64,000 nt of DNA from assembly GCA_963733675.1 (NCBI GenBank), contig CAVTET010000001.1:672001-736000 (forward strand), read 5' to 3'. A program made the translations under genes and the position numbers. Source of the stretch: an uncultured Methanosarcinaceae archaeon. Lineage in GTDB: Archaea > Halobacteriota > Methanosarcinia > Methanosarcinales > Methanosarcinaceae. Every line of letters starts with the position of its first letter. The first letter of the stretch is position 1. The notes under the pieces are model-generated. The model saw only the letters and a program-made list of their open reading frames with translations, did not search any database and was not told the origin of the DNA. Positions 7,351-55,989 of this stretch are shown here, piece by piece.

Positions 7351-8205
7351 GGTTCCGTTGCAAAAAATTCAAAAAAAATATATAAATCTATAGGTAATGA
7401 ATAAAAATCAGAATATTCAAAGAAAATGCACTAACATTATAAAACTATACCAAACAATTGATTAATGTATTTGACTTCATTAAGAACAGAGTAATTTAAA
7501 TCATTTACTTGTCCTTTTTTGATCATATTCATAGCTTCAATTCCTTTTAAAGTCTTATTAGCAGATTGAAAAGACTGAAATCCTAACATTGGATTAACGA
7601 TTCGCTTTATAAATCTATGATCTTGTTCTATAATGTTATTCAAATACTTGATTTGTCTAATGCCTACGTTTTTAGGTAGTATTTTATCATTTTTCAGTTT
7701 ACCTATAGCAGGTGGATAAGCTGGATTCTTATCAACTGTTATTACTCTTGGAATTTGATTATGATTAGAACTCAAAGCTTTCTTAAAAAATCTCTTCGCT
7801 GCATTTCGATTTCGTTTTGCACTTAACATGAAATCAATTGTATCTCCATTTGAGTCAACTGCTCGGTAAAAATATTTCCATTTACTTTTTATTTTGATAT
7901 AGGTTTCATCAACTTTCCACGAATAGTTTGTTAGTCTTAAATGTCTTCTTATCTTCTTTTCTAGTTCAGGGGAATATTGATGTACCCATCTCATTATAGT
8001 ACTGTGATCAACTTGAATTCCTCTTTCTATCATCATTTCCTTTAAATTTCTATAGCTCAATGGATATTTTAAGTACCATCTTACATTCAATAGGATAATT
8101 TCTCCTTCATAATGCTTCCATTTAAAGGAATTAGATAGCATATTACTATCTTTGGTTTTCTTTTTATTCTATTGTATCATTAGAAAGGATTTTTGCAACG
8201 GAACC
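7351..8205 (-). mobile_element. IS6 family insertion sequence, copy 1 (855 bp)
   Basis: TIRs GGTTCCGTTGCAAAAA at both ends around a DDE transposase; no target-site duplication visible. Confidence 0.95.
7437..8141 (-). CDS. IS6 family transposase
   Basis: 234 aa with WKVDETYIKI, VDKNPAY, NNIIEQDHR motifs. Confidence 0.95.
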   Translation of the reverse strand: MLSNSFKWKHYEGEIILLNVRWYLKYPLSYRNLKEMMIERGIQVDHSTIMRWVHQYSPELEKKIRRHLRLTNYSWKVDETYIKIKSKWKYFYRAVDSNGDTIDFMLSAKRNRNAAKRFFKKALSSNHNQIPRVITVDKNPAYPPAIGKLKNDKILPKNVGIRQIKYLNNIIEQDHRFIKRIVNPMLGFQSFQSANKTLKGIEAMNMIKKGQVNDLNYSVLNEVKYINQLFGIVL

Positions 8206-13748: not shown

Positions 13749-14603
13749 GGTTCCGTTGCAAAAATCCTTTCTAATGATACAATAGAATAAAAAGAAAACC
13801 AAAGATAGTAATATGCTATCTAATTCCTTTAAATGGAAGCATTATGAAGGAGAAATTATCCTATTGAATGTAAGATGGTACTTAAAATATCCATTGAGCT
13901 ATAGAAATTTAAAGGAAATGATGATAGAAAGAGGAATTCAAGTTGATCACAGTACTATAATGAGATGGGTACATCAATATTCCCCTGAACTAGAAAAGAA
14001 GATAAGAAGACATTTAAGACTAACAAACTATTCGTGGAAAGTTGATGAAACCTATATCAAAATAAAAAGTAAATGGAAATATTTTTACCGAGCAGTTGAC
14101 TCAAATGGAGATACAATTGATTTCATGTTAAGTGCAAAACGAAATCGAAATGCAGCGAAGAGATTCTTTAAGAAAGCTTTAAGTTCTAATCATAATCAAA
14201 TTCCAAGAGTAATAACAGTTGATAAGAATCCAGCTTATCCACCTGCTATAGGTAAACTGAAAAATGATAAAATACTACCTAAAAACGTAGGCATTAGACA
14301 AATCAAGTATTTGAATAACATTATAGAACAAGATCATAGATTTATAAAGCGAATCGTTAATCCAATGTTAGGATTTCAGTCTTTTCAATCTGCTAATAAG
14401 ACTTTAAAAGGAATTGAAGCTATGAATATGATCAAAAAAGGACAAGTAAATGATTTAAATTACTCTGTTCTTAATGAAGTCAAATACATTAATCAATTGT
14501 TTGGTATAGTTTTATAATGTTAGTGCATTTTCTTTGAATATTCTGATTTTTATTCATTACCTATAGATTTATATATTTTTTTTGAATTTTTTGCAACGGA
14601 ACC
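13749..14603 (+). mobile_element. IS6 family insertion sequence, copy 2 (855 bp)
   Basis: Same TIRs, near-identical to copy 1 in inverted orientation; no target-site duplication. Confidence 0.95.
13813..14517 (+). CDS. IS6 family transposase
   Basis: Protein identical to 7437..8141. Confidence 0.95.
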   Translation: MLSNSFKWKHYEGEIILLNVRWYLKYPLSYRNLKEMMIERGIQVDHSTIMRWVHQYSPELEKKIRRHLRLTNYSWKVDETYIKIKSKWKYFYRAVDSNGDTIDFMLSAKRNRNAAKRFFKKALSSNHNQIPRVITVDKNPAYPPAIGKLKNDKILPKNVGIRQIKYLNNIIEQDHRFIKRIVNPMLGFQSFQSANKTLKGIEAMNMIKKGQVNDLNYSVLNEVKYINQLFGIVL

Positions 14604-18272: not shown

Positions 18273-19127
18273 GGTTCCGTTGCAAAAACTTCAACAAAAT
18301 ATGTAAATCTATAAGTGATTAATAAAAATCAAAACATTCAAGGAAAATGTACTAACATTATAAAACTATACCAAATAATTGATTAATGTATTTGACTTCA
18401 TTAAGAACAGAGTAATTTAAATCATTTACTTGTCCTTTTTTGATCATATTCATAGCTTCAATTCCTTTTAAAGTCTTATTAGCAGATCGAAAAGACTGAA
18501 ATCCTAACATTGGATTAACGATTCGCTTTATAAATCTATGATCTTGTTCTATAATGTTATTCAAATACTTGATTTGTCGAATGCCTACGTTTTTAGGTAG
18601 TATTTTATCAATTTTTAGTTTATCTATAGCAGGTGGATAAGCTGGATTCTTATCAACGGTTATTAATCTTGGAATTTGATTATGATTAGAACTTAAAGCT
18701 TTCTTAAAAAATCTCTTCGCTGCATTTCGATTTCGTGTTACACTTAACATGAAATCAATTGTATCTCCATTTGAGTCAACTGCTCGGTAAAAATATTTCC
18801 ATTTACCTTTTATTTTGATATAGGTTTCATCAACTTTCCACGAATAGTTTGTTAGTCTTAAATGTCTTCTTATCTTCTTTTCTAGTTCAGGGGAATATTG
18901 ATGTACCCATCTCATGATTGTTGTATGGTCGACTTTTACTCCCCTTTCTGCCATCATTTCCTTTAAATTTCTATAACTTAATGCATATTTTAAGTACCAT
19001 CTTACATTCAATAAGATTATTTCCCCTTCATAATGCTTCCATTTAAAGGAATTAGATAGCATGTTACTATCTTTGGTTTTCTTTTTATTCTATTGTATCA
19101 TTAGAAAGGATTTTTTGCAACGGAACC
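18273..19127 (-). mobile_element. IS6 family insertion sequence, copy 3 (855 bp, diverged isoform)
   Basis: Same TIRs; several substitutions relative to copies 1 and 2; no target-site duplication. Confidence 0.95.
18358..19062 (-). CDS. IS6 family transposase
   Basis: 234 aa, about a dozen residue differences from copies 1 and 2. Confidence 0.95.
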   Translation of the reverse strand: MLSNSFKWKHYEGEIILLNVRWYLKYALSYRNLKEMMAERGVKVDHTTIMRWVHQYSPELEKKIRRHLRLTNYSWKVDETYIKIKGKWKYFYRAVDSNGDTIDFMLSVTRNRNAAKRFFKKALSSNHNQIPRLITVDKNPAYPPAIDKLKIDKILPKNVGIRQIKYLNNIIEQDHRFIKRIVNPMLGFQSFRSANKTLKGIEAMNMIKKGQVNDLNYSVLNEVKYINQLFGIVL

Positions 19128-33177: not shown

Positions 33178-33735
33178 TTATTTGAATAGCTTCAGGCCGG
33201 CAGCTTTTGCTTTCTTCATAAGCTCGGCATCATTCATTACTTCTCCTGGAGTATGGTATCCAGCTGCAACAAGAGTATCCTTTACATCCATTCCCATAAA
33301 GCGGGAAATTTGGCCTCCAAATTCTTCATAGACCCCTTTATATGCTGCAGGATCAGGCATACCCTGGGCTACCACAATTATGGCTTTTTTTCCACATGGA
33401 AGGCGGGTAGAATGATCTGAATTTATTAGGGAATAGCAACGATCCAAGAAGAGCTTCATCTGGCCTGAAAACTGACCAAAATAAATAGGAACCCCAAAAA
33501 TAACGCCATCAGCTTCTGCTAATTCTTTGAAAAGCTCTACAAGGTCATCTTCAAGTTTGCACTTCTCATGAGACTTACAGTAGTCACAGGCCTGACAGCC
33601 ACTGTACTTCATTTCGTTAAGGAGAAAAGTCCTAGTCTTTGCCCCAGCTTCGACCTCTCCTTCAAGAACCTGCTGGACGAGAGTGTTTGTGTTTCCATTT
33701 TTGCGGGGACTTCCTACAATACCTATAACTTTCAT
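33178..33735 (-). CDS. Iron-sulfur flavoprotein (Isf/flavodoxin family)
   Basis: GSPRKNGNT and Cx2Cx2Cx5C (CQACDYCKSHEKC). Confidence 0.9.
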   Translation of the reverse strand: MKVIGIVGSPRKNGNTNTLVQQVLEGEVEAGAKTRTFLLNEMKYSGCQACDYCKSHEKCKLEDDLVELFKELAEADGVIFGVPIYFGQFSGQMKLFLDRCYSLINSDHSTRLPCGKKAIIVVAQGMPDPAAYKGVYEEFGGQISRFMGMDVKDTLVAAGYHTPGEVMNDAELMKKAKAAGLKLFK

Positions 33736-34907: not shown

Positions 34908-35576
34908 TTATTTTATCAATCCTTTCTGGACATACCAATCATAATCATGAGCAAAACGCTACTTATTGAATTTTGCCAGCTGGCAAAAATATTCTGTTCG
35001 CTGACGATGTATTTCATCCTGGTCGGTATATTTGATTTTTCCGCAGATTGACTTTACCAGCTTCTTCCCAAGATCTTGCGCAGGCCCAATATAATTCTCA
35101 AGTGCAGAGAGGGCTCTCCCGATTATAAATCCAATGCTTCCAACAAAGGTAATGCCAAGATTTATGAGAACTCCATTCATATATTTCAAGATTTCATCGT
35201 CACCGCTTCCACCAGCTGTGCACACCGAGTACCTAAATTTTCCAGTCAGCATCCGGCAGTGAATTGCATCTGAAAGTCTATCTAAAAGGGCTTTCATTGG
35301 AGCCGGAACAGAGTTAATACAGTTAGGAGCACCAAGAACAACTCCATCAGCGTTCATAATTTTTCCAAATATCTCCATAAAATCATCAAATAAAGAACAT
35401 TCACCTGTAGCATAACAGGCTCCGCATCCAGTACAATATTCGATATTTAGCTTATAGAGATCTATAATCTCAGTTTCTGCCCCTTCAGATTAAGCACCTT
35501 TGATGACAGAATTTGCCAGTTTTGAGGTGTTACTTGCATTGCCCTATGGACTTGCATTGATTCCAATGATTTTCAT
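34908..35576 (-). pseudogene. Iron-sulfur flavoprotein pseudogene
   Basis: MKIIGINASP*GNASNT...GA*SEG...CTGCGACYATGEC; three in-frame stops. Confidence 0.85.
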
Positions 35577-35748: not shown

Positions 35749-36705
35749 ATGCAAGCAATTGAAGTATCTCATCTTACCAAAAAATTCGGATCTCTCACCG
35801 CGGTCAATGATATTAGTTTCTCAGTTGGTGAAGGAGAAACCTTTGGGTTTTTGGGTCCCAATGGTGCCGGTAAAACTACTACAATTCGTATTTTGACCGG
35901 AGTATCAAGACCAACTTCTGGAACAGCAACCATTTTTGGCTATGATATTGAGCATGATACCATTAATGCAAGGCAATCCATGGGCATCGTATCCGAAAAT
36001 TCCAACGTTTACGATGATCTGACTGCATGGCAGAACTTGATGTTCTCCGCGGAACTCTATCATGTGGGACGAAATGAGAGAGAGAAAAAGGCTACCGAAT
36101 TGCTCAAGAAGTTCGAGTTATACGAACGTCTCAGTGATAAAGCGCACGGTTTTTCAAAGGGAATGAAAAGACGTCTGACCCTTGCAATGGGGCTTGTCAA
36201 CAGCCCACGTCTGCTGTTCCTGGATGAACCAACCTCAGGGCTCGATGTACAGAGTAACCTCATCATTCGTGAAGTGGTATCGGACCTCATTCTCAATGGA
36301 GTCACTGTCTTTTTAACAACGCACAATATTGAAGAGGCAAATGTCATGTGTGATCGAGTAGCTATCATCAATAAAGGGAATATCATTGCAATCGATGCAC
36401 CGGAATCTCTGAAAAAGACGTTTAAAGGTTCACAGTCGATTGAGGTATCTTTTGACCATAATTCCGTAGATCACCTGGACGAACTCAGCAGTCTCTCAAT
36501 GGTGAATGACGCACAAAAGGCAGGTGACAAGTTTAAGCTCTATACTGAAGATCCAGCTGAAGTTATTGATGCCTTAGTAGCCTATGCTCACGCGCATAAT
36601 CTTAAAATAATCAGTATTACTACTCTTGGCCCTAGCCTCGAGGATGTATTTGTAAAGTTGACTGGTCTGCAGCGGGCAGGTGATGGAATCCATGCAATCG
36701 ATTAA
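35749..36705 (+). CDS. ABC exporter ATP-binding protein (DrrA-like)
   Basis: GPNGAGKTT, FSKGMKRR, LLFLDEPTSGLD, C-terminal SLEDVFVKLTG. Confidence 0.92.
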   Translation: MQAIEVSHLTKKFGSLTAVNDISFSVGEGETFGFLGPNGAGKTTTIRILTGVSRPTSGTATIFGYDIEHDTINARQSMGIVSENSNVYDDLTAWQNLMFSAELYHVGRNEREKKATELLKKFELYERLSDKAHGFSKGMKRRLTLAMGLVNSPRLLFLDEPTSGLDVQSNLIIREVVSDLILNGVTVFLTTHNIEEANVMCDRVAIINKGNIIAIDAPESLKKTFKGSQSIEVSFDHNSVDHLDELSSLSMVNDAQKAGDKFKLYTEDPAEVIDALVAYAHAHNLKIISITTLGPSLEDVFVKLTGLQRAGDGIHAID

Positions 36706-37459
36706 TCATGCGAGATTGGTAAAACATCTTTTCTGTCAGATATCTGCTGCGTGGGCAATCGCCAAAAAAGACATGAGGATCTATTACCTCAAGCCAAATA
36801 TCATCGTTTCCGGCATCTTTTTCCCGCTTTTTATGTTCCTAGCCTTTGCCATTGGAAAGAACACCCCTCCAGGCACCCTAATCCCGGGATTGATCTCGAT
36901 TACTCTCCTGTTTTCGGCTTCATCAATAGAACCGGTTTCAATACCTATAGAAAGACGTGTTAAAACTTTCGAACGTTTGCTCTCAGCACCTATTTCGCTG
37001 TATTCGCTGGTATCGGGTGAGAGCCTGAGTGGATTTTTTTATAGTCTCGGCATCGCATGTCTTCCCCTTGTCATTGGCGTGATCATCTTCAATACAACTA
37101 TTGTAAATGCAACTGTCCTTGTGATTGCTATGATCCTCACAGCATTCTGTTTTGCCACGCTTGGGACACTGTTTGCTGCATACCCTACAGAAAATGTGGG
37201 TGAGGTCATGTCTATGCTTAATACAGTAAGGCTACCGCTCATCTTTATATCTGGTGTTTTTGTCCCGATATCTTCTATGCCTCAGATAGGCCAGAAAATC
37301 GCACTTATATCACCACTTACATATGGAAGTGATCTTATCGAGTATGCGTATACCGATAAATCGCTATTTCCACCTTTTATGGATATGGTGATGCTGTTGA
37401 TCTTTATCCTAATATTTCAGATAATAGCAAACTATCTTTATAAGACATTTAACGAATGA
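36692..37459 (+). CDS. ABC-2 type permease
   Basis: About six TM helices; ER..KTFERLLSAP, FISGVFVPI, SPLTY; overlaps the ATPase stop. Confidence 0.9.
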   Translation: MQSINHARLVKHLFCQISAAWAIAKKDMRIYYLKPNIIVSGIFFPLFMFLAFAIGKNTPPGTLIPGLISITLLFSASSIEPVSIPIERRVKTFERLLSAPISLYSLVSGESLSGFFYSLGIACLPLVIGVIIFNTTIVNATVLVIAMILTAFCFATLGTLFAAYPTENVGEVMSMLNTVRLPLIFISGVFVPISSMPQIGQKIALISPLTYGSDLIEYAYTDKSLFPPFMDMVMLLIFILIFQIIANYLYKTFNE

Positions 37460-37644: not shown

Positions 37645-39072
37645 GTGAAACAGGAAAACGATTTCATAGTTTTTCATGGTAATCTACAGCAATTAATGGA
37701 AAAAGTGGAAACGGGAGAAATGATCCCCAAGCTTCAGGCTTCACACTCCCCAATGTGCAAATTTTTTACTGCGTATTACGTTATCAGTGGGATCCGTCAT
37801 GTAGTTCCCCTGGTCCACGGTCCGACCGGATGTCCGCTTTACATGTCGGATTTTGTCAGGACACGTGAATGCTGCGAGATCCGTGGAGTTCCACTAGAAC
37901 CCACAGCCTGCACCTCCCTTGATGAAAGCCACATCATCTACGGGGGTGAGGGAAAACTCCTGGAAGCAGTAAAGGAAGCATATACAAAGTATCACCCAGA
38001 TCTCATCGTCATCCTCTCTTGTTGCTGCTCTGGGATTATCGGTGATGACGTCGAAAGTATTGCTCGTGAGGCAGAGAAGTTGGTTGGTTGCAGGGTGCTA
38101 GCGCTCCGCAGCGAAGGGTTTGGTGGAGATTTCCGAAGCGGCTATGAGGACGCGTTCAAGCTCATCATGGAGTTGATGGAGCCCCCAAAAACGAAAATGA
38201 AAGGGACGATCAATATCCTCGGGGCCCGTTGGGGCCCTTCCCCCACAGAGTTCAACTGGGACATGGATGAGATAGAGCGACTTCTTGGTGAAATTAGAAT
38301 AAAGATAAATGCCATCATCGCGGGAGGGTGCACCGTCGAGCAGATTAAGCATGCTCGGGAGGTCGAACTTAATGCTTCATGGTGCTTTGACTGGGGGCAG
38401 AAGCTGGGCGATCTGATGCAAGAAAGATTCGGAATCCCTTACAGCCGTACCGGGCAACCCTATGGCCCTGAGGCCACAAAGGAATGGCTGCTCGGCGTGG
38501 CAACACCTCTTGGTATGGAGACAATGGCTATTAAAGTGATCGAACGAGAGCTACAGGAAGTAGAACCGGAAATAGCATATCTAAGGCAAGCTCTCTCCGG
38601 AAAAACGGCTATTGTAGAGATATCGGAATTCCCCGGGCCGATACGAGCGCTTTCGATTGCAAGGATGGCAGCAGAGTTTGGTGCACATCCTGTCGTCATC
38701 AACGTTCATCCATATACGATCAAGGAGCGTATGCCCAGCATCAAGTTTCTCCTGGAAACCGGAGTTAACCCGGAGATTATCCTGACAAAAGGACTCTTTC
38801 GGCTAGGGAGCTTTCGGTCATCCAAAGAGACAGAAGACGAGCTAGAGTCAATTGTTAAGGAATATGATAACCCTATTTTCTTCGGAAACTCAGGCCGGTT
38901 TCCTCCCTGTCCAGTGGTGAACTTAACACTCATGAACCCGTCGTTTCAGCCCCAGTACGGCTTCCGGGGGATTAGGAATATCGCCGCTCTGGTCAGACAG
39001 GCACTTGAGAACAAAGATCTACCACGTTCGCGATTATTTAAGGGGATGCTCTATGGAACAAGGAAATTTTAA
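37645..39072 (+). CDS. Nitrogenase component-1-like alpha subunit (NifD/NifE-like)
   Basis: PMCKF, VHGPTGC, IIYGGEGKL, SCCCSGIIGDD, SEGF, LNASWC, PQYGFRG. Confidence 0.9.
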   Translation: MKQENDFIVFHGNLQQLMEKVETGEMIPKLQASHSPMCKFFTAYYVISGIRHVVPLVHGPTGCPLYMSDFVRTRECCEIRGVPLEPTACTSLDESHIIYGGEGKLLEAVKEAYTKYHPDLIVILSCCCSGIIGDDVESIAREAEKLVGCRVLALRSEGFGGDFRSGYEDAFKLIMELMEPPKTKMKGTINILGARWGPSPTEFNWDMDEIERLLGEIRIKINAIIAGGCTVEQIKHAREVELNASWCFDWGQKLGDLMQERFGIPYSRTGQPYGPEATKEWLLGVATPLGMETMAIKVIERELQEVEPEIAYLRQALSGKTAIVEISEFPGPIRALSIARMAAEFGAHPVVINVHPYTIKERMPSIKFLLETGVNPEIILTKGLFRLGSFRSSKETEDELESIVKEYDNPIFFGNSGRFPPCPVVNLTLMNPSFQPQYGFRGIRNIAALVRQALENKDLPRSRLFKGMLYGTRKF

Positions 39073-40411
39073 GGAAACGGTTGGGCCATCAGAGTCTTCC
39101 TCGGAGACGTGCACTGACCCCTACCTTCGCTGTGCTTTCAACGGTGCCGCCCTGACGGCCCTTGGAGTCTCTCGTTCTGCTCTGCTTGCACATTCTCCAC
39201 AAGGATGCGAGTATCTCGTCAACAATGCCTTTGCTTCGCAGGAGTGTGATTATATGGAGACAATGACCCTCTGTACCAAGCTCTGCGTGGACGAGATCGT
39301 GTATGGTGGAGAGGACATCCTTACCCGCACAATTCGGAAGGTAAAAGATCTCACGATCTCTGCCCTTTTCGTGCTTAGTGCATGTGGTCCCGAAATTGTG
39401 GGCGACGATATTGTAGCAGTATGTGAGGCCCTGCAACCAGAAATGAAGTTCCGACTCGTTCCAATTGAATGTGCCGGGTTCCGAGGATCGCAATACGATG
39501 GCATCGACATCGCGCTGGATACGATCCTAAAAAAGCTGGTAAAAGACGACGTAGAGAAGGTACCCGATTCGGTCTGTCTTGTTGCTCCCCACGCCAATGC
39601 CAACCCGACATGGCCGGCAGACCTTACATGGGTGAAACAGATTCTTTCTAGGATGGGCATTAAGGTTGTAGCCACGCTCACACACCAGACTCCGATTTCT
39701 GAAATCGAAAACATCGCATCTGCTGAGACCTCCCTCCTGCTGAGCCACGATGCTGGGCAGAAAGCAGCAGATTACCTTTTAACTGAGTATGGCATCGAGC
39801 AGATATGTCAAGGGATACCCCTTCCAATAGGGATGACAAACACGCAACATTGGTTGACCGTGCTGGGTGAGCGATTCGATGTGCTGAAAAGGGTGGAGGA
39901 GATAGTTGCAGAAGGCGAACGGATGGTGATGGCAACGTGCCGGCGCAAGTGGCCGATGGCGAGGTTCCTGTATAGGACTCCGACAGCGATTGTTGCCGAT
40001 GCAACGGTCGGAATCCCTCTAGTCCGGTTTGTTACCGAGGAGATGGAGATGACCCCTGAGCTCGTTGCCTTGTACACCTCACAGAGACCTACGCGGGAAC
40101 TGCTGGAGCGGGAACTCCAGAGCCTTGGTCTCAATCCGAAGATCATTTACGGAACAGACGTGTATAAAACACGGAAGAGTATTCGGGAGGTCAGGCCACG
40201 GGTTGTGTTCGGTAGCACCATCGAAAGGCATGCAAGCGAGGGACTTTCCGTGGCCTATGTTATTGAGATCGTTAGGACGATTCGCCAGTTTAGGATGATC
40301 AATCGGGAATACTTCGGATATACAGGCATATTGAACCTGTTCGAGTGTATTCAAAATGAGTGGACTATGGGATGGCGTTCAAAAGAAAGGAGATATGAAG
40401 CAAGGTGGTGA
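39053..40411 (+). CDS. Nitrogenase component-1-like beta subunit (NifK/NifN-like)
   Basis: LRCAFNGA, HSPQGC, IVYGGE, SACGPEIVGDD, LPIGMTNT, YFGYTG; overlaps the end of the alpha gene. Confidence 0.9.
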   Translation: MEQGNFKETVGPSESSSETCTDPYLRCAFNGAALTALGVSRSALLAHSPQGCEYLVNNAFASQECDYMETMTLCTKLCVDEIVYGGEDILTRTIRKVKDLTISALFVLSACGPEIVGDDIVAVCEALQPEMKFRLVPIECAGFRGSQYDGIDIALDTILKKLVKDDVEKVPDSVCLVAPHANANPTWPADLTWVKQILSRMGIKVVATLTHQTPISEIENIASAETSLLLSHDAGQKAADYLLTEYGIEQICQGIPLPIGMTNTQHWLTVLGERFDVLKRVEEIVAEGERMVMATCRRKWPMARFLYRTPTAIVADATVGIPLVRFVTEEMEMTPELVALYTSQRPTRELLERELQSLGLNPKIIYGTDVYKTRKSIREVRPRVVFGSTIERHASEGLSVAYVIEIVRTIRQFRMINREYFGYTGILNLFECIQNEWTMGWRSKERRYEARW

Positions 40412-40417
40412 AGGAAT

Positions 40418-41263
40418 ATGAGACAGATCGCTATCTATGGCAAAGGTGGAATAGGGAAGAGCACGATAGCTTCAAACCTGTCTGCCGCATTAAATACGAT
40501 GGGGCACATGGTAATGCAGGTTGGCTGTGATCCAAAGAGGGATTCGACAAGAATCCTTGCAGAGGGGAAGTTTATTCCCGCAGTACTGGAAGAACACCGA
40601 GAACAGCTTAGGTTAGGAAAAGATGAATATGCGATAAATCTCGACAATCTGGTCTTCAGATCACCCAGTGGGATTTACCTTGTCGAGGCGGGAGGACCGG
40701 AACCTGGTATTGGGTGTGCTGGTAGAGGCGTGCTGACAGCTCTGCAAATCCTAAAAGACCTCAAGGCTTTTTCTACCTACAACATTGACATAGCAATCTA
40801 TGATGTCCTCGGAGATGTCGTATGCGGTGGATTCTCGATGCCTATACGTGAAGGATTTGCGGAAGAAATCTATCTCATCTGTTCTGGCGGCTTCATGAGT
40901 ATCTATGCGGCAAATAACATCGCTAGGGCTGTGCAACGCCTAGCAAAAAGGGGGGATACCGGCCTGGCAGGGATTATCTGCAACAGCAATGGAAATGAAG
41001 CATTTGAGCATGCAGTCATCCCGGCTTTTGCAAAAAAGCTGGGAACCCCTTTTGTCCAATTTGTCCCCAGGAGTCCCGTGATCCAGGCATGTGAACTGGA
41101 AGGTAGACCTGTAGTGGAGTACGCCCCCGATTCACTGGAAGCGGAAATATTTCGGAAACTTGCAAAAGCGATAATGGAAAATGATTCACGTGTGATCCCA
41201 ACGCCAGTAAGCGACCTTCCAGAGCTTGAAATGATGTATCGTCAGCATCTGGTGAAGATATAA
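40418..41263 (+). CDS. Nitrogenase iron-protein-like reductase (NifH family)
   Basis: YGKGGIGKST, GCDPKRDST, GGPEPGIGCAGRG, DVLGDVVCGGF. Confidence 0.95.
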   Translation: MRQIAIYGKGGIGKSTIASNLSAALNTMGHMVMQVGCDPKRDSTRILAEGKFIPAVLEEHREQLRLGKDEYAINLDNLVFRSPSGIYLVEAGGPEPGIGCAGRGVLTALQILKDLKAFSTYNIDIAIYDVLGDVVCGGFSMPIREGFAEEIYLICSGGFMSIYAANNIARAVQRLAKRGDTGLAGIICNSNGNEAFEHAVIPAFAKKLGTPFVQFVPRSPVIQACELEGRPVVEYAPDSLEAEIFRKLAKAIMENDSRVIPTPVSDLPELEMMYRQHLVKI

Positions 41264-41302: not shown

Positions 41303-41935
41303 ATGAAATACGTCGATATCGACAGGATTTACCAGACAGTACCGCTTGATAAAATTCCCTGGAATAGTGAAGCACCCCCAGATAAGCTTGTTGAGCTGGT
41401 GCAAAGTGGAAAAGTCCGACCCTGCAAGACCATTGATCTCGGTTGTGGCGCTGGTAACTATGCAATATACCTGGCAGAGCGGGGATTTGAGGTAATAGGT
41501 GTCGATAGTTCACCCACTGTAATAAAGATCGCTACTGAAAATGCACAAAAACGAGGAGTCAGGTGCAATTTTATTGTCGCTGATCTTCTAGGTGACCTGC
41601 ATGAAGTTAAAGAGACATTTGATTTTGGCTACGACTGGGATTTTTTGCACCATATATTTCCAGAAGACCGGGGAAAATATGTAAAAAATGTGTATAATAT
41701 TCTGAAACCAGGAGCACAGTACTTATCAGTCTGTTTTTCTGAGAAGGATCCACAGTTTGACGGCATGGGTAAATACCGGAAAACCCCTATAGGAACAATA
41801 CTGTATTTCTCTTCGGAATCCGAAATACATGATCTTTTTTCACCTTATTTTGACATACAAGAACTGAAAACGATAGAAATCAAAACTAAATCTGTGTCAC
41901 ATTATGCAATTTATGTATTGTCTGAACGACGCTGA
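41303..41935 (+). CDS. Class I SAM-dependent methyltransferase (TPMT/thiol-methyltransferase-like)
   Basis: IPWN motif before DLGCGAG; GFEVIGVD; YD..FLHH. Confidence 0.88.
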   Translation: MKYVDIDRIYQTVPLDKIPWNSEAPPDKLVELVQSGKVRPCKTIDLGCGAGNYAIYLAERGFEVIGVDSSPTVIKIATENAQKRGVRCNFIVADLLGDLHEVKETFDFGYDWDFLHHIFPEDRGKYVKNVYNILKPGAQYLSVCFSEKDPQFDGMGKYRKTPIGTILYFSSESEIHDLFSPYFDIQELKTIEIKTKSVSHYAIYVLSERR

Positions 41936-42700: not shown

Positions 42701-42718
42701 CAATGAGGTGTAGTGATC

Positions 42719-43501
42719 ATGACATACACAGATTTCAAAGAAATCGGGGCAAAGCTGAAGGCAGCATTCAGGCTTTCGACACGCCCTCTTGCTGTATACG
42801 GATCTGAAGTCCTACCAGCGAGCATTCCACCGATGACCAGAGTTAACCGGTGTTTTGCTGTCTCGATGTATCGGATGGCCACAGTAAACGAGATATCAGC
42901 GATCTATGTAAGTGCCGACATCAGTGAAGACTGCTGCCTCGGTGGGCTCTATCATATGGGATATATTCCAATACCTGATGAAATCAAGTATTTTGTATCG
43001 ACCGGCAGGAAAGATGTTCGTGGCGGGGCAGCAGAATACCTGAAAGCAGATCCGGAGCTGGTAGAGCGCTGCATGTTGTTGGCTGGACCGATACATCCAC
43101 CGGGAAAATATCTTATCGTTCAGGCATGTGAAACCCTTCCAGATCCTGGGCCTGCCATCAGATCCCTGTGTTGCTTTGGTACAGCCGAGCAAATACGTAA
43201 TATTGCGGCACTCATTCACTTCGATCGGGACGACCCATTTTCACCTGTGATCGTTCCCTGGGGATCAGCCTGTTCTACATATATCACATTCCCGGCTGGC
43301 CTTGCTGACAAAACACCGCTTGATACCGCATTCATGGGCCCGCAGGATCCCACACAGAACCATTCCCTGCCTCCAGAAATGATGGCGATAGGTATTCCTG
43401 TTGATATGGCCGAAAGAATGGAAAAAAATCTCGACGCTTCGTTTATCATTCGGAGACCGCAAGTGGCATTTCCCAATCATGAGAAGCAATTGAAACAGTA
43501 G
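42719..43501 (+). CDS. DUF169 family protein
   Basis: LSTRPLAVY, RCFA, CCLGG..HMGY, AEQIRNIAAL, PWGSACS, EMMAIGIP; GAGGTG SD. Confidence 0.8.
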   Translation: MTYTDFKEIGAKLKAAFRLSTRPLAVYGSEVLPASIPPMTRVNRCFAVSMYRMATVNEISAIYVSADISEDCCLGGLYHMGYIPIPDEIKYFVSTGRKDVRGGAAEYLKADPELVERCMLLAGPIHPPGKYLIVQACETLPDPGPAIRSLCCFGTAEQIRNIAALIHFDRDDPFSPVIVPWGSACSTYITFPAGLADKTPLDTAFMGPQDPTQNHSLPPEMMAIGIPVDMAERMEKNLDASFIIRRPQVAFPNHEKQLKQ

Positions 43502-52892: not shown

Positions 52893-53506
52893 GGAAGATC
52901 TGCTATAACTTTCAATTACTTTTAATTAATCTTCCCTCTTCTTTTTATCCTTTTTTCGTTTTAAGTGTCCTCTAGTTGCAATTAGATGCAATTTATATAT
53001 AATATCTCATTAATTTTATTTTGATCCTATTTTTATAATCATTTCTTCCTTTTAGAAAGACTGAATATCCGAACTTGAACCATAATTTGAATATATTGCA
53101 GAAAAAAATCTATATTAAAAACTCTTTTAATGCTCCGACATTCTCCCATTTATGCAGATGTATAATTTTTTTGCCCTTTTGCTTATTATTGTTCAGTGAA
53201 AGTTAGATTAATTTTTAAGCTACTGGCATATCGAGAAAATAGATTGAATTTTTGTGTACATTTACGGAAAGTGGTGTATTCATTAATATTGATTAATTTA
53301 CAAATAATTCTGTAGCATCTTTTTTCCAAAACGCCATTCTCCTTTTTTAGTACCCTGTGCTCTCTGCAAAAGTTAAAAATATGTTTATTAAAGCTCAATT
53401 TGATTGTCTAGCAGCTGAATTATTTTTCAAAAACCTATTGTTTTAATTTTATTCATATTTCAGGAATATATATTTAACAAGAGAAACCCAATTTGCTTTG
53501 ATAGCA

Positions 53507-54757
53507 ATGGGAAAATTCAAAATAAAATGTCTGAAGTGCGGAAAAGAATATGGTCATCAGTACAAGCTCACCTGTGAGAACGATGACTCCATCTTGCGGG
53601 CGGAATATTTTGAAAAAAGGCTGGATCTACGAAAGCAGCCAGGTATGGGAAGATTTCATTCCTGGCTTCCGGTCCAGGAAGAACTTACTACGGATGCAGG
53701 ACCCACTACCTACAAAAGTGAGGCTTTCGCCAGGGAACTCGGGCTCTTAAACCTTTACATAGGATTCAGTGGGTATTGGCCCGAAAGGGGATCTTTTATC
53801 AAAACCTGCAGTTTCAAAGAACTTGAGGCTTACCCTACCATGCAGCTTCTAAAAGAAAGTGGTGGTAAAGCTATAGTACTTGCCTCTGCCGGAAATACAG
53901 GTCGGGCATTTGCTCATGTCTCGGTCTTAACAGGCATAGATGCCTACATAGTAGTCCCAGATTCCGGAATTTCATATTTATGGCTGCCTGAAGAACCGAA
54001 TGAGTCAGTTCATTTGATCTATATGAGCCCAGGGAACGACTACACTGACGCTATCAACCTTGCAGTAAGAGTTGCAAAACTGCCTGGATTGGTTTTCGAA
54101 GGCGGAGCCAGAAATATCGCCCGAAGGGATGGGATGGGCACTGTGATGCTGGATGCAGCAGTAACCCTCGGAAAAATGCCTGATCACTACTTTCAGGCAG
54201 TAGGGAGCGGAACCGGGGGAATCTCAGCATGGGAAGCTTCCTTACGCTTAAGGGCCGACGGACGATTCGGGCAGAAACTTCCAAAATTACAGCTTGCTCA
54301 GAACCTTCCTTTTGTACCTATCTACAGTGCCTGGCAGGCAAAAAGAAGGGAAATTATTCCTGAAATTGATATGAAGGATGCTAAGAAACAGATAGAGGAA
54401 ACTTATGCATCGGTCCTTACAAATCGGACTCCTCCTTATGGCATAAAAGGAGGACTATATGATGCACTTGTTGATACTGATGGGGTGATGTACGCAATTA
54501 CCAGAGAAGAAGCTCTTGAGGCTAAGGTACTTTTCGAATCGCTGGAGGGGATTGACATACTGCCCCCATCCGCGGTTGCTGTAGCTTCCCTGTTAAAAGC
54601 TGTAAAAACTGGGAACGTTGGGACGGGAGATGTCATTCTCCTAAATATTGCAGGTGGGGGGTACATCAGGCTAAAAGAAGACTTCACACTTTTTCAGATC
54701 TCACCGGTAGCTCATGCCAAAAATTCAGATGTCCTTTTAGAATATCTAAATATTTGA
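53507..54757 (+). CDS. Cysteate synthase (coenzyme M biosynthesis)
   Basis: Threonine-synthase fold with TCSFKELEA, ASAGNT, YFQAVGSGTG; directly upstream of comDE. Confidence 0.9.
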   Translation: MGKFKIKCLKCGKEYGHQYKLTCENDDSILRAEYFEKRLDLRKQPGMGRFHSWLPVQEELTTDAGPTTYKSEAFARELGLLNLYIGFSGYWPERGSFIKTCSFKELEAYPTMQLLKESGGKAIVLASAGNTGRAFAHVSVLTGIDAYIVVPDSGISYLWLPEEPNESVHLIYMSPGNDYTDAINLAVRVAKLPGLVFEGGARNIARRDGMGTVMLDAAVTLGKMPDHYFQAVGSGTGGISAWEASLRLRADGRFGQKLPKLQLAQNLPFVPIYSAWQAKRREIIPEIDMKDAKKQIEETYASVLTNRTPPYGIKGGLYDALVDTDGVMYAITREEALEAKVLFESLEGIDILPPSAVAVASLLKAVKTGNVGTGDVILLNIAGGGYIRLKEDFTLFQISPVAHAKNSDVLLEYLNI

Positions 54758-54831
54758 GTGAGGAGAACTATAGAACAAGCACTAAATATTAAAGGACTAT
54801 AGAATAAAAAAGAAAGCTGAAGAGGTATGTC

Positions 54832-55989
54832 ATGGCAAGTCCCGAAGAAGAAGTTATAGCAATTATGAAAAAAGAAGGTATTGACCTTGCTGCAACTTTG
54901 CCCTGTGACCGAATCAAGAACCTACTTCCTCTTGTTTCGGATAATTTCCCAGAAATCAGGTTGACTAGGGAAGAAAATGGTGTGGGTATTTGTGCCGGCG
55001 CTTACCTTGCAGGGGGAAAACCCATGATGCTAATTCAAAGTACAGGACTTGGGAATATGATTAACGCTCTAGAATCCCTAAATGTAATATGCAAAATTCC
55101 ATTACCTGTACTTACAAGCTGGCGTGGAGTTTATGGAGAATATATTGAGGCGCAAGTTCCTTTTGGGGTTCACCTTCCAGCCATTCTCAAAGGAGCAGAG
55201 CTGGAATACACAATAATTGGAGACGTTGAAAAGATTTATCTCCTTGAAAACGTAATTAAAGATGCTTTTGAAAATTTAAGGCCTCACGTTGCTCTGATAT
55301 CACCTAAAGTATGGGAAGCTTCGAGCTGCTGCAGATGGGAAGTTGCGGGCCTTCCAGAAAAACCGAAGGTTATGGAAAGAACATGCGGGTTTAACCTCAA
55401 GATGAAAAATATCAAGCCATTGATGCTCAGGAACGAGGCAATTTGTGCAGTTGCCTCGCAACTTGATGACGAAATTACAGTAACAAATCTAGGAATCCCC
55501 TGTAAGGAACTTTATGCCTACAAAGACAGAGATCTCAATTTTTATATGTTTGGTTCAATGGGGCTTGTTTCCTCGATTGGCCTTGGAATTGCGCTCCGCG
55601 CCGAAAAGATAGTAGTGGTTTTTGATGGGGATGGAAGCCTGTTGATGAATCCTAATGCCCTTCTTGAAGCTGCAAAAGAAGCCACTAAAAACTTAATAAT
55701 TATTGGCCTTGATAATGGTTCTTATGGGTCTACGGGTTCGCAGGAAACATGTGCTATGCGCTATATTGACCTTGAAATTTTTGCAAAAGCATGCGGGATC
55801 CAAAATACGGCTAAAGTAAACAGCAGGGAAGGTTTAATAGAGGCTTTCAAGAGGTTTAGGGCCATGCAAGAACTTTCATTCATCCATGTAATCCTTAAAC
55901 CAGGAAACACAAAAGCCCCAAATATTCCCCTAAGTCCAGAAGATGTTACAAAACGCTTTAAAAGGGCTTTAGAAGCAGAAAAACTATGA
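54832..55989 (+). CDS. comDE: Sulfopyruvate decarboxylase, fused alpha/beta
   Basis: TLPCD, TREENGVGICAG, QSTGLGN; NFYMFGSMG, DGDGSLLMN, DNGSYGSTG. Confidence 0.92.
   Translation: MASPEEEVIAIMKKEGIDLAATLPCDRIKNLLPLVSDNFPEIRLTREENGVGICAGAYLAGGKPMMLIQSTGLGNMINALESLNVICKIPLPVLTSWRGVYGEYIEAQVPFGVHLPAILKGAELEYTIIGDVEKIYLLENVIKDAFENLRPHVALISPKVWEASSCCRWEVAGLPEKPKVMERTCGFNLKMKNIKPLMLRNEAICAVASQLDDEITVTNLGIPCKELYAYKDRDLNFYMFGSMGLVSSIGLGIALRAEKIVVVFDGDGSLLMNPNALLEAAKEATKNLIIIGLDNGSYGSTGSQETCAMRYIDLEIFAKACGIQNTAKVNSREGLIEAFKRFRAMQELSFIHVILKPGNTKAPNIPLSPEDVTKRFKRALEAEKL

Follow-up and report, generated by a model that had tools for sequence, protein, structure and literature searches.

A nitrogenase-like nflDKH clade of methanogens, Bathyarchaeia and Chloroflexota that appears to lack both known histidine anchors of the catalytic cluster

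Large carbide-centred iron-sulfur clusters are known to be anchored in just two ways, one through a cysteine and a histidine of loop II in the nitrogenases and the other through a cysteine and a histidine of Loop I in methylthio-alkane reductase (MAR). The MarDK component of the latter is reported to hold a P-cluster together with an [8Fe-9S-C] cluster on Cys270 and His429 (PMC12552129; PMC13474568), and the histidine is described as part of an extended Loop I, beside Arg428, which replaces Gly424 of the Azotobacter vinelandii (Av) NifD (PMC12552129). Among the nitrogenase-like (NFL) proteins of Group IV, as surveyed by North and Shafaat (PMC13474568), most sequences are said to retain the P-cluster cysteines without the histidine that binds FeMo-co (iron-molybdenum cofactor), and the equivalent of NifD Cys275 is widely conserved. 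Here we describe a three-gene operon, nflDKH, in a 64,000-nucleotide stretch of DNA (the window; contig CAVTET010000001.1, forward-strand positions 672,001 to 736,000, assembly GCA_963733675.1) from an uncultured Methanosarcinaceae archaeon. Alignments indicate that its catalytic subunit, NflD, belongs to a clade without either of the known histidine anchors, NifD His442 and MarD His429. The loss of His442 alone is not new, and it is the histidine-free Loop I that makes the clade distinctive. By a small measure we favour reading nflDKH as a two-component, ATP-driven reductase of this nitrogenase-like clade that would carry a His-free L-type cluster and would not fix N2.

The alpha subunit NflD, a NifD-like catalytic subunit of 475 aa with a GTG start, is encoded on the plus strand at 37645..39072 (PF00148, E 2.4e-69), and the beta subunit NflK, 452 aa from its ATG, at 39053..40411 on the same strand (PF00148, E 4.6e-74). 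The first 20 nt of nflK lie within the end of nflD, a longer open reading frame (ORF) would begin at a TTG at 39005, and homologs of NflK are 452 aa long and up to 97% identical to it. The third gene, nflH (40418..41263, +; 281 aa; PF00142, E 1.1e-92), encodes a NifH-like ATPase and reductase with the Walker A motif GKGGIGKS and the cluster cysteines C100 (in CAGRG) and C136 (in VCGGF); it scores 333 bits with the NCBIfam model for nifH and 332 bits with that for CfbC, in each case under the model's own cut-off. All three components are intact.

Translation confirms the residues named at this locus in an earlier, sequence-only reading: alpha C38 in PMCKF, C63 in GPTGC, C126-C127-C128 in SCCCSG, C247 in LNASWC, SGYE at 165-168 and LTLMNPSF at 427-434, and beta C27, C52, C111, C65 (in ECDY) and C74 and C78 (within LCTKLC). 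When aligned with HMMER to the solved Clostridium pasteurianum NifD, alpha C63 (codon 37831-37833), C127 (38023-38025) and C247 (38383-38385) fall on the P-cluster and cofactor cysteines, and a profile alignment to the same protein places C38 (37756-37758) on its NifD cysteine; together with beta C27 (39131-39133), C52 (39206-39208) and C111 (39383-39385), the full six-cysteine set for the P-cluster (NifD 62, 88 and 154; NifK 70, 95 and 153) is present. Conservation was assessed over 114 alpha homologs of 60-97% identity and 63 beta sequences. The P-cluster-type cysteines are retained almost without exception (C38 in 113/114, C63 and C127 in 114/114, and each of the three beta cysteines in 63/63), as is the cofactor-type C247 (114/114), a pattern far beyond chance. 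Because six conserved cysteines stand at canonical positions, a P-type cluster that would bridge the two subunits is the natural interpretation, as the sequence-only reading had proposed. Its description of the ligand set as unusual does not survive, since P-cluster cysteines and a Cys275 equivalent without His442 are, by the account in PMC13474568, the rule for most Group IV NFL proteins. The extra cysteines to which it had pointed are all present, but they are only partly conserved: C77 of alpha (114/114) and C78 of beta (63/63) are invariant, and the remainder range from C126 (112/114), C128 (108/114) and beta C74 (58/63) down to C76 (82/114) and beta C65 (40/63). Further near-invariant residues in alpha are C89 (112/114), C229 (113/114), H34, H52, H58, R334, H355 (codon 38707-38709) and R418, and C20 of beta is invariant (63/63).

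Two resemblances between the subunits were also seen. Alpha C89 and beta C74 occupy matching positions, 11 residues ahead of a GG motif, and beta S231-H232-D-A-G-Q-K (39743-39760) is a pseudo-symmetric copy of the cofactor-cysteine motif W-C247-F-D-W-G-Q-K of alpha (38380-38403), with Ser-His replacing Trp-Cys (H232 in 60/63, D233 invariant).

The site of His442 was mapped with a MAFFT alignment of relatives, bridged via the relative P0270 to C. pasteurianum NifD, and falls on T428 or L429 of the window's NflD. There is no histidine in segment 414-442 of this protein, and no column of the segment holds a conserved histidine across the 114 homologs (His occurs in 47/114 at position 437, 18/114 at 435 and 1/114 at 419). 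In the alignments to C. pasteurianum NifD, R164 lies on Gln191 and Y167 on His195, position 164 being Arg in 113/114 homologs and position 167 Tyr or Phe in 113/114, so that the loss of the His195 and His442 equivalents asserted earlier is borne out. Other residues of the NifD pocket have invariant equivalents in NflD, namely V46 for Val70, R334 (in GPIR) for Arg359 and H355 for His383. Loop I of NflD is shortened and reads G414-N-S-G-R418-F419-P-P-C422-P (R418 at 38896-38898, followed by F419, and C422 at 38908-38910), and the helix following NifD Gly424 is deleted. R418 is found in all 114 homologs, and position 419 is Tyr in 50, Phe in 37, Gln in 22, Cys in four and His in one; the arginine of the MarD Arg428-His429 pair thus has an equivalent, R418, and the histidine has none.

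Residues of Loop I also divide the family in two. Subtype 1 (81/114), which combines Phe or Tyr at 419 with C422 and C76, occurs in methanogens, some Bathyarchaeia and one member of the Chloroflexota, while subtype 2 (33/114), with Gln, Tyr, Cys or His at 419 and Ile or Val at 422, occurs chiefly in Chloroflexota and also in Bathyarchaeota. In subtype 1, C422 might serve as a substitute anchor; nothing equivalent is kept in subtype 2. Neither the His-free Loop I nor the split into two subtypes is described in the literature searched. As for MarD itself, a representative sought by its HWSTGFD motif and the published ligand numbering was not found, the motif being present in 0 of 389 collected proteins, and P0270, chosen as a stand-in for its RH motif, was rejected because it is nearer to NifD and NifE than to MarD. 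A PDB search with the C-terminal 146 aa of alpha, a region too divergent to align directly with solved chains, gave one chance match (E 1.3).

Because NflD has no equivalent of His442, Gln191 or His195 and the helix with the homocitrate-contacting lysine is deleted, its catalytic cluster could not be FeMo-co bound in the manner of nitrogenase, and NflDK almost certainly does not fix N2, in line with the earlier expectation. The sequence-only reading had further suggested a singly anchored cluster other than FeMo-co and a new type of active site, and had considered neither a MAR-type histidine nor NifB. The first suggestion stands as far as it excludes FeMo-co held as in nitrogenase, with a singly or differently anchored L-type cluster being plausible; what stays special about the ligand set is narrower, namely that the MAR-type histidine would be lost as well.

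The nature of the cluster can be approached through the genes that accompany the operon. Wherever enough flanking sequence is available, each of the 80 related loci has the order D-K-H, and in Chloroflexota and Bathyarchaeota loci a radical S-adenosylmethionine (SAM) gene of about 273 aa directly follows nflH; the five of these genes that were scanned match the NifB core (TIGR01290, E 2.1e-70 to 4.2e-81, model positions of about 3-275 of 441). In 15/15 eligible subtype-2 loci (Chloroflexota and one Bathyarchaeota) NifB is located no more than 1.5 kb past nflH, as it is in 1/37 eligible subtype-1 loci, this one being the bacterial locus L050. A search of the whole record of a 3.3-Mb Anaerolineae contig returned two PF00148 matches, one NifH-like match and one NifB, all in the nfl cluster, and since these are the only such matches on the contig, its NifB has no other nitrogenase-family client there. 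The genome from which the window comes holds a NifB of the same short form (C1:1077684-1078514; 361 bits, above the cut-off), which is not beside nflDKH, and also nifDKEN, a second D/K pair and CfbD. Considering the NifB linkage, the contig with a sole client, the NifB of the host genome and the invariant equivalents of Val70, Arg359 and His383, the most likely cofactor is an L-type cluster, derived from NifB, on C247.

Some related loci show variations on the cassette. A complete Dehalococcoidales chromosome carries the D and K matches in one 953-aa frame (L060, G002:C1:812080-814911), with a NifH match that spans only 59 profile positions and no NifB found, and this could be either a fused D-K gene with an otherwise decayed cassette or an assembly artefact. 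In two Dehalococcoidia loci a squalene-hopene-cyclase-like gene (prenyltransferase repeat, 351-378 aa) stands between nflH and nifB (L058:11564-12700 and L061:11617-12672), the two copies being 70% identical to each other.

Under the favoured reading, an NflH dimer with a [4Fe-4S] cluster on C100 and C136 and a Walker A ATPase would deliver electrons singly to a P-type [8Fe-7S] cluster bridging NflD (C38, C63, C127) and NflK (C27, C52, C111), from which they would move onward to an [8Fe-9S-C] (L-type) cluster made by NifB, lying buried in NflD with C247 as its anchor. The far end of this cluster might be free or, in the methanogen subtype, held by C422, with the invariant R418 touching a belt sulfide, and the pocket would be lined by the family-specific invariant motifs GGDFRSG(Y/F)EDAF, WCxDWGQK, C77-E-x-R-G-x-P-L-E-P, G-P-I-R334 and H355-P-Y. 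We can offer no better than a guess at the chemistry, which might be the reductive cleavage of a small polar carbon-heteroatom compound of the sulfur type; with as little confidence, the neighbouring TPMT-like methyltransferase might methylate the product in methanogens, and the ABC-2 transporter encoded upstream might handle it.

Several observations weigh against this scheme or against parts of it. The mapping of Loop I onto MarD R428 and H429 combines the published replacement of Av NifD Gly424 by R428 with our own alignments, in which MarD was not aligned directly. C422 is Ile or Val in 33/114 homologs and position 419 is mostly of a non-ligand type, leaving no second anchor that holds across the family, and the structural model of alpha, with a predicted local distance difference test (pLDDT) score of 67 and values below 50 in the cluster-binding segments, lends no geometric support to contacts by C422 or R418. 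Methanogen loci have no adjacent nifB (0/36 eligible subtype-1 loci besides L050), and the use of an unlinked copy is assumed for them. The guess at a substrate is weak because neighbourhoods are highly variable and sulfur-assimilation genes are missing from the 20 annotated loci. Finally, contigs from RNA libraries give hints of nfl transcription in peat-type samples, of which they are no proof.

In sequence the clade is distinct from the families that have been named. All NCBIfam matches of the alpha and beta subunits (NifD, NifE, NifK, NifN, VnfD, AnfD, BchB/N/Z and CfbD) are far under their cut-offs, with scores in bits of 121 against 654 for nifD (TIGR01282), 67 against 823 for VNFD, 66 against 874 for ANFD, 50 against 427 for nifK, 154 against 505 for nifE, 50 and 35 against 327 for nifN, 75 against 490 for BchB, 37 against 420 for BchN and 45 against 268 for CfbD. 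When 1.84 billion cluster representatives were searched with the family profile, the family's own representative scored 945 bits, two sister clusters 430 and 415 bits and the rest at most 240 bits. Among the best 150 representatives, which reach down to 136.6 bits, 102 are full-length, and by NCBIfam matches at E <= 1e-110 (0 hits) no genuine Nif, Vnf or Anf protein is among them; a look-up of the clusters of 10 representatives yielded almost no names. Against solved chains the family profile scores 148 bits with NifD and 129 bits with MarD, the latter just below the floor of those 150. A FastTree phylogeny of 111 rows unites the nfl family and the two sister clusters as a clade with local support of 99, and its neighbour is an 18-row clade that has the H355-Pro motif in common with it. 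Close homologs come from metagenome-assembled genomes (MAGs) labelled as Methanosarcina or Methanosarcinaceae, Methanoregula or Methanoregulaceae, Methanolinea, Methanothrix or Methanotrichaceae, Methanocella, 'Ca. Methanolliviera', Bathyarchaeia or Bathyarchaeota, Dehalococcoidia and Anaerolineae.

Closest by sequence among the solved enzymes is the Mo-nitrogenase NifDK, as represented by C. pasteurianum (4WN9/1MIO), and the protein of Methanocaldococcus infernus (9SPZ) aligns over the full length. NifDK and NflDK have in common the fold, the P-cluster cysteines, Cys275, the equivalents of Val70, Arg359 and His383 and a NifH partner, whereas NflDK is without His442, Gln191 and His195, without the helix after Gly424 and without NifEN in its operon. 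As a NifD homolog outside Nif, Vnf and Anf with P-cluster cysteines and Cys275 but no His442, NflD belongs to Group IV NFL in the broad sense of PMC13474568, and within it the nflDKH clade is a separate branch of the NFL radiation. The mBio 2026 screen of Groups IV-A and C-F is described as drawing on bacterial genomes; Methanocella, Methanoregula, Methanosarcina and names beginning with Dehalococc or Chloroflex are absent from its four supplementary files, and no paper on the nflDKH clade was found in the literature searched.

Of the other explanations, the one that fares best is a MAR-like enzyme of sulfur acquisition, performing the chemistry of Groups IV-C and IV-F, in which C-S bonds of volatile organosulfur compounds or sulfonates are cleaved to feed cysteine and methionine synthesis, with a divergent active site, and we regard it as unlikely. 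MarBHDK of Rhodospirillum rubrum (Group IV-C; PDB 9FMG, 9D9U) is, like nfl, a three-component system of the NifH/D/K type with six P-cluster cysteines, a Cys275 equivalent (MarD Cys270) and no His442, and it depends, as nfl probably would, on a NifB homolog and on neither homocitrate nor NifEN. MAR has a dedicated NifB homolog, MarB; for nfl, a nifB gene is adjacent in the 15 eligible subtype-2 loci and in L050, and in the window's genome NifB is an unlinked single copy. For the alpha model MarD (9fmg_A; E 9.7e-21, template modelling score 0.52) is the closest match in fold, and in the PDB it also ranks with the best matches by sequence (E 8.8e-31 with the single sequence and 1.3e-36 with the profile). 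Many host MAGs come, by their record titles, from peat, bog and fen metagenomes, the runs of the matching RNA libraries are labelled peat or soil, and Group IV NFL genes are generally reported beside sulfur-metabolism genes (mBio 2026). Nonetheless, no cysteine or methionine synthase, sulfonate or other sulfur-assimilation gene was seen in the 20 annotated loci or next to the window's operon, unlike the mar loci, and the hallmarks of MarD are missing: NflD has the invariant R418 and no His429 in Loop I, and in place of the HWSTGFD helix, with His194 and the essential Trp195, it has DFRSG(Y/F)ED (DFRSGYEDAF in the window). The Arg359 equivalent kept in NflD is reported as lost in MAR (PMC13474568), the gene order is D-K-H(-B) rather than B-H-D-K, and the hosts are archaea, Chloroflexota and Bathyarchaeia. 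The 129 bits that the family profile gives MarD compare with 945 for its own representative, and MAR activity, as the screen is summarised (mBio 2026), seemed confined to Group IV-C.

It is quite improbable that NflDK is a NifEN-like scaffold or maturase, processing NifB-co for another enzyme such as the methyl-coenzyme M reductase (MCR) activation complex and not itself reducing a metabolite. NifE is the best NCBIfam match of both subunits (154 and 114 bits), and NifEN handles a NifB-derived cluster, as NflDK probably does. NifE, too, keeps a Cys275 equivalent and has no His442. NifEN, however, has a [4Fe-4S] interface cluster and a single NifN cysteine, whereas NflDK keeps all six interface cysteines. 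The scores also lie far under the NifE cut-off of 505 bits, and in the Anaerolineae genome, which has no other PF00148 protein, the module stands alone with its own NifH and NifB and no nitrogenase to mature. A housekeeping maturase would moreover not be distributed as the nfl genes are in the host's taxonomic family, in which one of 80 other genomes carries a copy, and a broken one. In favour of the maturase reading, NifB and nitrogenase-like terms are reported for the MCR activation complex (PMC12176620).

We think it just as improbable that the enzyme is an NFL protein with simple clusters, of the type of dark-operative protochlorophyllide oxidoreductase (DPOR), chlorophyllide oxidoreductase (COR) or CfbCD, having [4Fe-4S] clusters only and an organic pocket. 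The eight pseudo-symmetric cysteines (alpha C38, C63, C127 and C89; beta C27, C52, C111 and C74) would allow two fully ligated cubanes to replace the P-cluster, weak matches to the BchB, BchN and CfbD models exist and a histidine anchor is absent. These points have to be set against the NifB linkage of every eligible subtype-2 locus, the retention of Arg359 and Val70 equivalents, the absence of tetrapyrrole genes from the operon and the invariance of C247, the equivalent of which is reported as missing in DPOR, COR, CfbD and Group VI (PMC13474568); these systems (Groups V and IV-B) bind their [4Fe-4S] cluster through three cysteines and an aspartate or as a symmetric homodimer, and NflDK differs in having three cysteines in beta and separate D and K genes. 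Least credible of all is a cryptic alternative nitrogenase resembling Nfa, the Group IV-A protein of Endomicrobium reported to support N2 fixation (PMC13474568), for although the P-cluster cysteines, Cys275 and the Val70 and Arg359 equivalents are kept and the genes are NifB-linked, Gln191 is replaced by R164 and His195 by Y167, His442 has no counterpart, nifDKEN and a second D/K pair are already present in the host, and no nifI, glnB or nifEN-type genes lie alongside, either in the window or among the 20 loci annotated.

A reductase with a His-free L-type cluster therefore remains the reading we prefer, and a bolder version of it is offered tentatively, as a possibility we doubt more than we believe. 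It would join a third, His-free way of holding a NifB-made [8Fe-9S-C] cluster (by Cys247 alone or with Cys422, and with an Arg418 contact), near to the 'differently ligated' ancestor of nitrogenases and MARs inferred by Lago-Maciel et al., to a reduction new to the superfamily and to a self-contained DKH(B) cassette spreading in anoxic soils and peat among methanogens, Bathyarchaeia and Chloroflexota. A conserved, NifB-linked clade without either histidine would let the contribution of the second anchor to reactivity be tested in nature, and it would bear on the way in which a cluster was held in the ancestral enzyme. In metagenomes of peat and wetland methanogens the clade is abundant, so its chemistry could matter for element cycling there. 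Public records label nfl genes as 'nitrogenase component 1' or 'nitrogenase molybdenum-iron protein', and diazotrophs can be overcounted as a result.

In the window the operon lies within a block, ABC-nflDKH-methyltransferase-DUF169, of higher GC content (42-51% over 36-44 kb, compared with 31-37% around it). Records labelled Methanosarcina and Methanoregula carry NflD proteins that are 93% identical, and among 80 other genomes of the host's taxonomic family there is only one match, a 277-aa fragment with an internal TGA (G076:C1:647286-648119) that looks like the remnant copy of a congener. From the GC block, the identity across genera and the presence in 1/80 genomes, a recent horizontal acquisition is inferred, the block probably being an acquired island.

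Upstream of nflD and separated from it by a gap of 185 bp is an ATP-binding cassette (ABC) transporter of the ABC-2 type on the plus strand, consisting of a DrrA-like ATPase (35749-36705; TIGR01188, 330.8 bits, above the cut-off) and a permease (36680-37459); an orthologous pair, on either strand, is present in 7/37 eligible subtype-1 loci and 0/16 of those of subtype 2. Downstream, at 41303..41935 (+), the accessory neighbour is a class I SAM methyltransferase of 210 aa, TPMT/TehB-like by Pfam. Its nearest solved relative, 6mro (E 4.6e-26), is a methyltransferase from Methanosarcina acetivorans to which no function is assigned; thiol, halide and tellurite-type methyltransferases come next. 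Homologs of the window's methyltransferase lie within 400 bp after nflH in 9/37 eligible subtype-1 and 0/15 subtype-2 loci, and anywhere in the locus in 12/53 of subtype 1. The DUF169 protein (262 aa; 42713..43501, +; PF02596, E 2.3e-27) is an occasional neighbour, with homologs in 3/53 subtype-1 loci and in none of subtype 2; a search found no solved relative of it, and the literature passages on DUF169 mention it only incidentally. A flavoprotein of the FMN_red family (185 aa; 33178..33735, -; PF03358, E 8e-23) is a possible electron carrier with a weak link to the operon, homologs being near it in 3/53 subtype-1 and 1/21 subtype-2 loci. A second ORF (34959-35378, -), of 139 aa and immediately upstream of the ABC genes, covers no more of the FMN_red profile than positions 66-150 and is likely an N-terminally truncated flavoprotein gene.

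Contigs from metatranscriptome libraries of two studies are 95-99% identical to the window over the ABC genes, nflD, nflK, nflH and the genes for the methyltransferase and DUF169, and one of them, of 2,089 nt, spans K, H and the methyltransferase; some bins around 37.4-37.7 kb are without RNA-contig cover.

A few other features of the window and its genome may be recorded. On contig 12 of the host genome a PF00148 gene with internal stops lies beside a C-terminal NifB fragment that also contains a stop (G000:C12:17369-22495), in what looks like a decayed nif-type cluster, and the second D/K pair, which is intact, adjoins NifX-like fragments on another contig (G000:C4:156961-164557). Three ORFs of the window (7437-8141, -; 13813-14517, +; 18358-19062, -) are each 234 aa long and look like copies of one insertion sequence, the first two having identical DDE_Tnp_IS240 scores and the third sharing their length. 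At 53498-55989 a PALP enzyme of 419 aa is followed by a thiamine pyrophosphate (TPP) enzyme of 385 aa, a pair reminiscent of the genes for cysteate synthase and sulfopyruvate decarboxylase that serve coenzyme M synthesis in Methanosarcinales.

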